From the NCBI GenBank assembly GCA_049303905.1, contig JBAQNP010000017.1, forward strand, positions 4 to 64,003: a stretch of DNA of 64,000 nt, written 5' to 3'. The DNA comes from Candidatus Moraniibacteriota bacterium. GTDB taxonomy: Bacteria; Patescibacteriota; Minisyncoccia; Moranbacterales; UBA2206. Numbering within the stretch: position 1 is the first letter of the stretch; every line of letters starts with the position of its first letter. Made by a program: the position numbers and the translations under genes. A model generated the notes under the pieces. That model saw only the letters and a program-made list of their open reading frames with translations, had not been told where the DNA came from and searched no databases. Shown here piece by piece: positions 32,882 to 33,136 of the stretch.

Positions 32882-33136
32882 TTAGCAGCAGGTTGCTGGC
32901 TTATACTCTTTTCTGTCCTTATATTCCTCTGTTTTGCCGGCGTTCCATTGTGACACTGGGCGGATATAGCCTACGATACGAGAATAAACTTCCGTTTCTT
33001 GAAAATTTCGCAGTACCGAATCAGCCTCATGACATTTTCGGCATTTGAAAAATTCTCCACTATTTGTTTCGTACTTCGCCACTTCATCGTCGTTTTCCAA
33101 TTCTTTTTTGCAATCATGACATATTTGTTTTTTCAT
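32882..33136 (-). CDS. Stand-alone NrdD C-terminal Zn-ribbon/glycyl-radical domain protein (spare-part-like)
   Basis: EVYSRIVGYIRPVSQWNAGKTEEYKDRKEY is near-identical to the NrdD C-terminus EVYSRIVGYIRPVEQWNAGKSEEYKDRKEF; CHDC...CRKC zinc ribbon; ~80% DNA identity to nrdD 3' end. Confidence 0.65.
   Translation of the reverse strand: MKKQICHDCKKELENDDEVAKYETNSGEFFKCRKCHEADSVLRNFQETEVYSRIVGYIRPVSQWNAGKTEEYKDRKEYKPATCC

Follow-up and report, generated by a model that had tools for sequence, protein, structure and literature searches.

In Escherichia coli, oxygen cleaves the class III ribonucleotide reductase (RNR) NrdD at the radical glycine. Glycyl radical enzymes are cut by O2 at this residue, and for pyruvate formate-lyase (PFL) the lost domain is replaced by YfiD/GrcA, a small protein activated by PFL-AE (PMC13450708, PMC8683613). 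Among glycyl radical enzymes such spare-part proteins are known for PFL only, the question being open for the others (PMC8683613, 2021; PMC13450708, 2026), and in full-text literature searches no previous account of a spare part of the NrdD type was found. Here we describe an 84-residue protein encoded between nrdD and nrdG in a 64,000-nucleotide stretch of DNA from a Candidatus Moraniibacteriota bacterium (contig JBAQNP010000017.1), the whole of which is referred to as the window. Comparative genomics suggests that this protein is, on balance, probably an NrdG-activated spare part for oxygen-cleaved NrdD, as GrcA/YfiD is for PFL. The spare-part concept is established; what is new is the family, the enzyme it derives from, the zinc-ribbon architecture and the operon contexts.

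The gene lies on the minus strand together with the genes of the class III RNR system:
35480–35986, minus strand: nrdR, transcriptional regulator of RNR genes (TIGR00244, 168.8 bits; Pfam Zn_ribbon_NrdR and ATP-cone)
33250–35442, minus strand: nrdD, full-length class III RNR, 730 residues (Pfam ATP-cone and NRDD; NF006126, 1068 bits)
32882–33136 (stop included), minus strand: small gene with ATG start, stand-alone NrdD-type glycyl-radical domain protein, 84 residues
32040–32738, minus strand: nrdG, radical-SAM activase of NrdD, 232 residues (TIGR02495 NrdG2, 216.8 bits, cut-off 131)

The order nrdR, nrdD, small gene, nrdG, read from the open reading frame (ORF) listing of the window and confirmed with Pfam and NCBIfam models, is that given in a preliminary description of the locus, whose account of an 84-residue ORF with CHDC...CRKC at 32882–33136 proved accurate in every detail. 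This placement between the genes for the parent enzyme and its activase differs from that of grcA, which is unlinked to pflB. The window NrdD has an intact glycyl-radical domain of its own, with Gly704 encoded by codon 33331–33333. Its finger loop reads MCCR (residues 408–411, 34210–34221), the double-cysteine type with a methionine; NrdDs of the MCCR type may take formate or thioredoxin as reductant (PMC9669993).

The resemblance between the small protein and the C-terminus of the adjacent NrdD had been described as a near-exact match, with about 80% identity between the 3' ends of the two genes, and both statements hold. By BLASTP, residues 46–78 align with residues 694–726 of the window NrdD with 28/33 identities (E = 1e-17), and the best ungapped local DNA alignment has 70 identical positions over 88 nt (79.5%; 32905–32992 against 33267–33354). 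The ORF passes the Pfam gathering score for NRDD (51.8 against 26.2 bits, E = 7e-14), matching profile positions 509–562 of 562 alone, a resemblance far beyond chance. G56 of the small protein aligns with Gly704 of the window NrdD, RIVG56Y being identical to RIVG704Y, and with the radical Gly621 of Thermotoga maritima NrdD in a profile-to-PDB alignment in which the loop corresponds to TmNrdD 612–644. Synonymous sites of the 33-codon segment shared by the small gene and nrdD in the window genome are near saturation (pS = 0.76), which argues that the likeness is kept by protein-level selection, with no recent copying in this genome.

The small protein (MKKQICHDC...KCRKC...EVYSRIVGYIRPVSQWNAGKTEEYKDRKEYKPATCC) has the zinc site of an NrdD C-terminus, CxxC...CxxC, followed by the radical-glycine loop, EVYSRIVGYIRP. 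Its elements, supported in part by an AlphaFold2 (AF2) model, are:
33032–33121, minus strand: Cys4 zinc ribbon, residues 6–35, C6-H-D-C9...K31-C32-x-x-C35 (conservation in 117 sequences, AF2, NrdD alignment)
33002–33013, minus strand: linker motif L42-R-N44-F45 (L42 invariant and N44 conserved at 90% or more in 117 sequences)
32957–32992, minus strand: glycyl-radical loop EVYSRIVG56YIRP, residues 49–60 (invariant residues, T. maritima alignment, AF2)
32969–32971, minus strand: codon of the putative radical glycine G56
32918–32941, minus strand: post-glycine helix AGKTEEYK, residues 66–73 (AF2; K68 and E71 invariant; description in PMC11226230)
32885–32890, minus strand: C-terminal Cys-Cys tail, residues 83–84 (..KPATCC)

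Alignment with the C-termini of neighbouring NrdDs reveals the zinc ribbon, linker, loop and post-glycine segment: the small protein is a complete glycyl-radical domain, more than a tail. In the alignment of 117 family sequences, Y22, K31, C32, C35, L42, R53, G56, Y57, P60, W64, N65, K68 and E71 are invariant, and conservation reaches 90% or more at C6, H7, D8 and C9. The radical-glycine context assumed in the original reading is thus kept, with R53, G56, Y57 and P60 all invariant and G56 lying on Gly621/Gly704. The ∼25 residues that follow G56, helix included, are conserved to the same degree as the glycine motif. The small proteins further share the linker D-x-V-L-R-N-F-Q and, after the loop, the segment Q-W-N-x-G-K-x-E-E-Y-x-D-R. 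The linker motif L-x-N-[FY] is found in all zinc-ribbon-bearing subfamilies and is absent from full-length NrdD.

The AF2 model computed from the 117 family sequences (mean predicted local distance difference test score, pLDDT, 84.8) places zinc-ribbon β-hairpins at residues 4–6, 19–24 and 27–32, strands at 48–51 and 57–60 flanking the G56 loop, and a helix at 66–73. The modelled order of elements matches the published radical domain of Prevotella copri NrdD, in which a zinc site and a buried glycine loop are accompanied by a short helix 12–19 residues past the glycine (PMC11226230); the helix of the small protein is equivalent to residues 723–730 of the P. copri enzyme. The zinc site, buried glycine loop, short helix and tail come in the same order as in NrdD radical domains (P. 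copri 676–739, T. maritima Gly621, T4 Gly580). The differences are that the small protein is free-standing, that its Cys4 site has 22 residues between the pairs where NrdD has C-P-x-H...C-P-K-C with 13, that its linker is 8 residues longer and contains LRNF, and that it often ends in a Cys pair whereas the NrdD tail is Lys-rich. When compared with the NrdD models (PF13597, TIGR02487, NF006126), it lacks the ten-stranded α/β barrel, the thiyl-radical finger loop and the nucleotide-binding sites, and reaches 37 bits with NCBIfam against cut-offs of 326–585.

The Cys-rich tail is confined to part of the family. At least two Cys are found in the tail of 61/115 Patescibacteria-type members, as CC, CxC or CxxC, but in 0/119 Desulfobacterota-type members and 0/14 cognate NrdDs. 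Such a pair could serve in redox shuttling, metal binding or sensing; however, its absence from half of one subfamily and from all others indicates a lineage-specific addition and not the core function.

The comparison with GrcA/YfiD (InterPro IPR011140) is close in concept and distant in sequence. Both are small stand-alone proteins that correspond to the glycyl-radical domain of a parent enzyme and preserve the radical-glycine motif; association with oxygen stress and an N-terminal extension absent from the parent domain are likewise shared, as is, presumably, activation by the activase of the parent. However, a Pfam scan at E ≤ 0.1 gave no PF01228 (Gly_radical) match to the small protein, only NRDD (PF13597) and weak zinc-finger matches. 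As the parent enzyme also differs, the small protein falls outside the GrcA/YfiD family, and by these matches the family is not homologous to GrcA. It derives from NrdD, not PFL, and has a Cys4 zinc ribbon where the N-terminal half of YfiD is disordered; moreover, GrcA has a biochemically proven function, whereas that of the small protein is predicted. There is no Pfam or NCBIfam model specific to the family, the NCBIfam matches being to the ends of NrdD models only, and source annotations name its members as fragments of 'anaerobic ribonucleoside-triphosphate reductase', as hypothetical and, once, as 'ribosomal protein S14'.

The small gene is real and old, and no duplicate in decay. Among 5.8 billion proteins, a word-indexed search identified 202 close stand-alone relatives, the best 120 of which are all 67–144 residues long and, with one exception, contain PF13597 alone; the named sources are Parcubacteria and Moranbacteria, and the nearest relatives come from a Parcubacteria-group metagenome-assembled genome (MAG; 96% identity) and a Moranbacteria MAG (90%), a look-up of the exact sequence of the window protein having given no record. 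An exhaustive profile search over 1.84 billion cluster representatives (clusters at 50% identity) gave 672 clusters at E ≤ 1e-10, and the best 150 of these are all 42–159 residues long. The ratio of nonsynonymous to synonymous divergence (dN/dS, omega) was obtained by the Nei-Gojobori method for the closest orthologous pairs. Between the window gene and that of locus L009, dN is 0.022 and dS 0.71 (omega 0.03), with further omega values of 0.09 (L011), 0.05 (L010) and 0.07 (L024 against L026). For the three closest pairs (window, L009 and L011), omega is 0.06–0.22 in the N-terminal half and 0.01–0.03 in the radical-loop half. The gene is thus under strong purifying selection, with both halves of the protein constrained. 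The reading frame is intact in all relatives which, with these omega values and the 672 clusters, is not what is seen for a pseudogene. The checks proposed in the preliminary description, conservation beside nrdD in related genomes and purifying selection, both turned out in favour of a functional gene: the small ORF is present beside nrdD and nrdG in many Patescibacteria, and omega values of 0.03–0.09 clearly speak against neutral decay.

Relatives of the small gene are found in four contexts, namely between nrdD and nrdG, in oxygen-defence operons, as single orphan genes in Desulfobacterota and on phage contigs. The arrangement nrdR-nrdD-small gene-nrdG recurs in diverged Patescibacteria (Moranbacteria, Parcubacteria group, Minisyncoccales, Paceibacterota), and the NrdD partners in the nrdD-small gene-nrdG loci are full-length (707–745 residues). 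A scan of GTDB species representatives revealed longer relatives of 94–125 residues, 43–53% identical, away from nrdD and nrdG. Their neighbours in Patescibacteria include rubrerythrin together with desulfoferrodoxin (L028, L042), Fur-family regulators (L029, L042, L044), Fe/Mn superoxide dismutase (SOD; L044) and hemerythrin (L031), and oxygen-defence neighbours are likewise seen in two Desulfobacterota genomes (L043, L050).

An independent test set supports this association. It comprises 80 metagenomic loci found with an alignment of the orphan Patescibacteria subtype, 79 of which carry the stand-alone ORF, and the families counted as oxidative-stress genes were PerR-like Fur-family regulators, Fe/Mn SOD, rubrerythrin, desulfoferrodoxin, hemerythrin and the redox-disulfide domain. 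In 63 of the 79 loci a gene of one of these families lies within two genes on the same strand, abutting or ∼30 nt apart; counted by cluster, the association holds for 42/56 at 90% identity and 7/9 at 70% identity. The operon in these Patescibacteria takes the form of a PerR-like gene, then the small gene, then SOD, rubrerythrin, desulfoferrodoxin or hemerythrin. A Fur-family gene stands directly upstream in 36 loci, and SOD (29), rubrerythrin (15), hemerythrin (14) and desulfoferrodoxin (9) are found nearby. The regulator scores best on PerR models (∼100 bits against 54–63 for Fur), although below the curated cut-offs. A gene for a hybrid-cluster-associated redox-disulfide domain is nearby in 6 loci of this subtype; an 85-residue redox-disulfide protein, seen at L127 (1963–2220) and five other loci, is in several Patescibacteria operons flanked by the PerR-like gene and the gene for the stand-alone radical domain, the L127 protein scoring 38.9 bits on TIGR03980, just under the cut-off.

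The Desulfobacterota subfamily comprises at least 700 proteins of ∼111–118 residues in which the N-terminus bears an additional helix (MTIQRLHELFDENPGK..) and the zinc-ribbon insert is longer (loci L027–L050 and L089–L095; Desulfobacterales, Syntrophales, Thermodesulfobacteriota). Its gene stands alone, away from nrdD and nrdG and in varied surroundings, and in this resembles E. coli grcA, which is also unlinked to its parent enzyme. One member is carried by a 6.8-Mb Desulfobacterales chromosome (CP070697.1).

On IMG/VR contigs, the stand-alone copy occurs without nrdD or nrdG within 4 kb in 41 of 80 loci, with endolysin, head-tail adaptor, Mu-like transposition protein and HNH endonuclease genes as neighbours. 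Some of these phage proteins are mini-forms of 37–56 residues that lack a zinc ribbon and start a few residues ahead of the glycine. Among them are peptides of 37–46 residues, such as MITRQKCEVYSRVVGYIRPVSQWNAGKQSEFKDRKLFKGGVKN, which also lack the zinc ribbon and have no nrdD gene within 4 kb. The loci of the mini-peptides are:
L220, 3989–4120: phage mini-peptide (IMG/VR)
L238, 3989–4111: phage mini-peptide (IMG/VR)
L244, 3986–4099: phage mini-peptide (IMG/VR)
L248, 3980–4117: phage mini-peptide (IMG/VR)
L251, 3980–4111: phage mini-peptide (IMG/VR)

In L220, L244 and the syntenic L238 the mini-peptide lies just downstream of a gene for phrog_7339, a DNA repair exonuclease (match tested in L220 and L244). 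Some mini-peptides could be 3' exons of an intron-split nrdD. A precedent for phage-borne stand-alone radical domains is Y06I of bacteriophage T4, a GrcA homologue that rescues PFL; Y06I is of the PFL type, whereas the phage forms described here are of the NrdD type, some with only 37–56 residues and no zinc ribbon.

All 14 NrdDs paired with a small protein, that of the window included, retain their own zinc site and the radical motif EVYSR[IV]VGY[IL]RP, so the small protein is an additional copy of the domain, and NrdD is not a split enzyme whose missing part it supplies. It appears to follow the NrdD of its own genome. Positions in the 33-residue segment co-vary between the two (I/V before the glycine, I/L after it, N-A/K/E/G-G-K, and EEY/AEF/QEF), and the mean identity is 29/33 to the same-genome NrdD against 25/33 to the NrdDs of other genomes. 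In L025 the small protein matches its own NrdD at 32/33 positions and any other small protein at no more than 26/33. Within-genome synonymous divergence of the segment (pS) spans 0.19 (L024) to 0.97 (L018), a spread that points to shared constraint with gene conversion now and then, and conversion has probably acted in some lineages. Judged from these alignments, the tracking is supportive but not decisive, because the permutation test is confounded by shared ancestry. In a few loci the nrdD beside the small gene is apparently truncated or divided into two ORFs (L002 3422–5584, L019 3278–4960, L081 4640–4990, L075 4944–5183). The missing piece is present at the truncated loci as an adjoining ORF, and these cases are most likely frameshifts or assembly errors, the alternative being natural decay of nrdD.

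These observations lead us to the following model for the small protein. NrdG, using S-adenosylmethionine, would abstract a hydrogen from G56 to generate a glycyl radical on the small protein. An activated NrdD cut by O2 at Gly704 would lose its 27-residue C-terminal piece and become inactive, and the glycine loop of the stand-alone domain would then enter the emptied barrel and face the MCCR finger loop. This would re-establish the radical relay from Gly to Cys, and with it deoxynucleoside triphosphate (dNTP) synthesis, at a cost of 84 residues instead of 730. In cryo-electron microscopy and hydrogen–deuterium exchange studies the NrdD radical domain behaves as a highly mobile rigid body that is not seen in one monomer or in any of the dATP-bound forms (PMC11226230). 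This implies that a barrel with an empty radical-domain site is a normal state of NrdD, and since the domain leaves the barrel reversibly, a stand-alone copy should be able to insert. For genomes of ∼1 Mb, swapping an 84-residue part in place of a 730-residue enzyme would be an obvious saving. The phage mini-forms keep just the region that cleavage would destroy, which would follow the same logic and parallels T4 Y06I. Owing to the full domain content, the adjacency to the activase gene, the tracking of the cognate NrdD and predicted co-transcription with oxygen-defence genes in sister lineages, a spare part is the simplest model. The GrcA-like role put forward in the preliminary description is thus supported by comparative genomics, with which the PerR-headed stress operons and the stand-alone phage copies agree. 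More tentatively, we propose that a large, unnamed, NrdD-derived family, independent of GrcA, is a class III RNR repair module deployed beside nrdD and nrdG, in PerR-controlled operons and by phages (as peptides of 37–56 residues), and that some lineages have gained a redox-active Cys tail.

Several observations weigh against the spare-part model. After cleavage at Gly704 the zinc ribbon of NrdD itself remains and would need to be displaced, although the same is accepted for PFL and YfiD. A simple spare part would not account for the Cys-rich tail or for the LRNF motif peculiar to the family. Searches of the 64-kb window by tblastn for PerR, SOD, rubrerythrin, desulfoferrodoxin and hemerythrin found none, so the link to oxidative stress is drawn from sister subfamilies, and the orphan gene of Desulfobacterota sits in uninformative contexts. 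Phylogeny partly confounds the tracking of the cognate NrdD, for which binding to a shared NrdG alone could also account. Finally, a Foldseek comparison of the AF2 model with the PDB returned insignificant matches to zinc ribbons alone (best E = 0.38), a search that is uninformative for 84 residues against chains of 600–700 residues.

In the main alternative, the small domain would never dock in NrdD and would instead act on NrdG, either as a competing or sacrificial substrate that tunes or blocks NrdD activation or as a stabiliser or chaperone of the activase. The exact retention of the activase-recognition motif RIVGY and of the zinc ribbon fits such a role, as does the position of the gene directly upstream of nrdG, and the oxidative-stress operons would also suit a protein that stops radical generation under oxygen. 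We nevertheless consider it unlikely. A decoy should need mainly the residues flanking the glycine, as activases act on short Gly-site peptides according to the work quoted in PMC8683613 (ref. 34 therein), yet the ∼25 post-glycine residues, including the helix that solved structures place on the NrdD barrel, are conserved like the glycine motif and track the cognate NrdD. The phage mini-forms moreover retain the post-glycine part and drop the zinc ribbon.

Another role, that of a redox or metal accessory factor of NrdD, is suggested by the Cys pairs at the C-termini of RNRs of classes I and II, which deliver electrons to the active site. The glycyl-radical-like body of the small protein could target it to the top of the barrel, where the Cys pair and the Cys4 site would deliver electrons to an MCCR-type site or sense redox state or O2. 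As in the class I and II enzymes, the pair is at the extreme C-terminus of a flexible tail near the barrel top, a position over which the C-terminal tail of P. copri NrdD also passes; however, there is no sequence relation, and the pair takes the form CC, CxC or CxxC in only about half of one subfamily. This role is consistent with the difference in tails between the Patescibacteria-type members (61/115) and their cognate NrdDs (0/14), and with the MCCR finger loop of the window NrdD, a type that may use thiol reductants (PMC9669993). It is made improbable by the absence of the Cys tail from about half of the Patescibacteria members, from all Desulfobacterota members and from the phage forms, while G56 and the residues flanking it are invariant throughout.

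That the small protein is an obligate subunit, supplying in trans a radical domain that the neighbouring NrdD cannot provide from its own chain, might be read from the position of its gene between nrdD and nrdG and from the apparently truncated nrdD at L002, L019 and L081, but this is hardly credible when 14/14 paired NrdDs keep a complete zinc site and radical motif under selection, the truncations resemble frameshifts or errors of assembly and many family members lie far from nrdD. A recent, non-functional partial duplication of the nrdD 3' end, to which the 79.5% DNA identity over 88 nt might point, is refuted by the omega values of 0.03–0.09, the near-saturated synonymous sites between the copies (pS 0.76), a conserved N-terminal half (CHDC...KCxxC...LRNFQ) that is unlike NrdD, and the hundreds of diverged clusters.

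The spacers around the small gene contain further signals, all of them pattern matches only:
33160–33188, minus strand: promoter-like site TTATCA-17-TATAAT in the 113-nt spacer between nrdD and the small gene (consensus scan, 10/12)
32833–32867, minus strand: terminator-like hairpin of 16 pairs with a T-run, 15 nt past the stop of the small gene (consensus scan; inverted repeat I11)
33144–33247, minus strand: long-range spacer hairpin, arms 33232–33247 and 33144–33159 (16 nt, 94% complementary)
L009, 4888–4991: spacer hairpin in a relative
L011, 4905–4992: spacer hairpin in a relative

Since a sigma-70-like site precedes the small gene and a strong terminator-like hairpin follows it, the gene may also be transcribed alone. 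The spacer hairpin (RNA fold −22.5 kcal/mol, z = −2.7) encloses the promoter-like site, and its 3' arm ends 8 nt before the ATG; hairpins of differing, unrelated sequence are found in the spacers of L009, L011, L013 and L016 (z −2.2 to −5.1). Such a structure could govern read-through or translation. In the search with the NrdR-box consensus no site was found ahead of the small gene, and the sole plausible site is upstream of nrdR, a palindrome (ACCCTATATATTGTAT, 36107–36122) with 2 mismatches to the consensus that adjoins the best promoter-like site of the region (36161..36134, 11/12 matches). Inspection by eye of the spacer between nrdD and the small gene for a Fur/PerR-type operator gave an AT-rich half-site resemblance indistinguishable from background. 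A large AT-rich palindrome at 32731–32811, just upstream of and overlapping the nrdG start codon (32738), is a candidate for an operator or attenuator; its arms, of up to 33 nt and 79–93% complementary, consist of TGYTAAWATG repeats with an 8-nt period. Downstream of nrdG, the block at 29418–32011 is syntenic with L001 7120–9891, a locus whose small protein is 62% identical. The block contains two small ORFs without assigned function (113 and 118 residues, the latter acidic and rich in D/E along one stretch), ApbE and a membrane protein resembling ferric reductases.

Our results identify a concrete and widespread spare-part candidate for class III RNR, an essential enzyme and a model of radical enzymology. 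A question stated explicitly as open can now be tested directly in a defined system of three parts, namely NrdD, NrdG and the protein of 84 residues, and the genes merit a family model of their own. If the spare-part model is true, this repair strategy has evolved at least twice and would be one that glycyl radical enzymes use generally. The family would also represent a new member of the oxygen-defence regulon in Patescibacteria and Desulfobacterota, and its phage-borne forms would suggest a route by which phages sustain or manipulate the dNTP supply of the host. For strict anaerobes with minimal genomes, such a protein would explain how DNA precursors continue to be made after exposure to oxygen.

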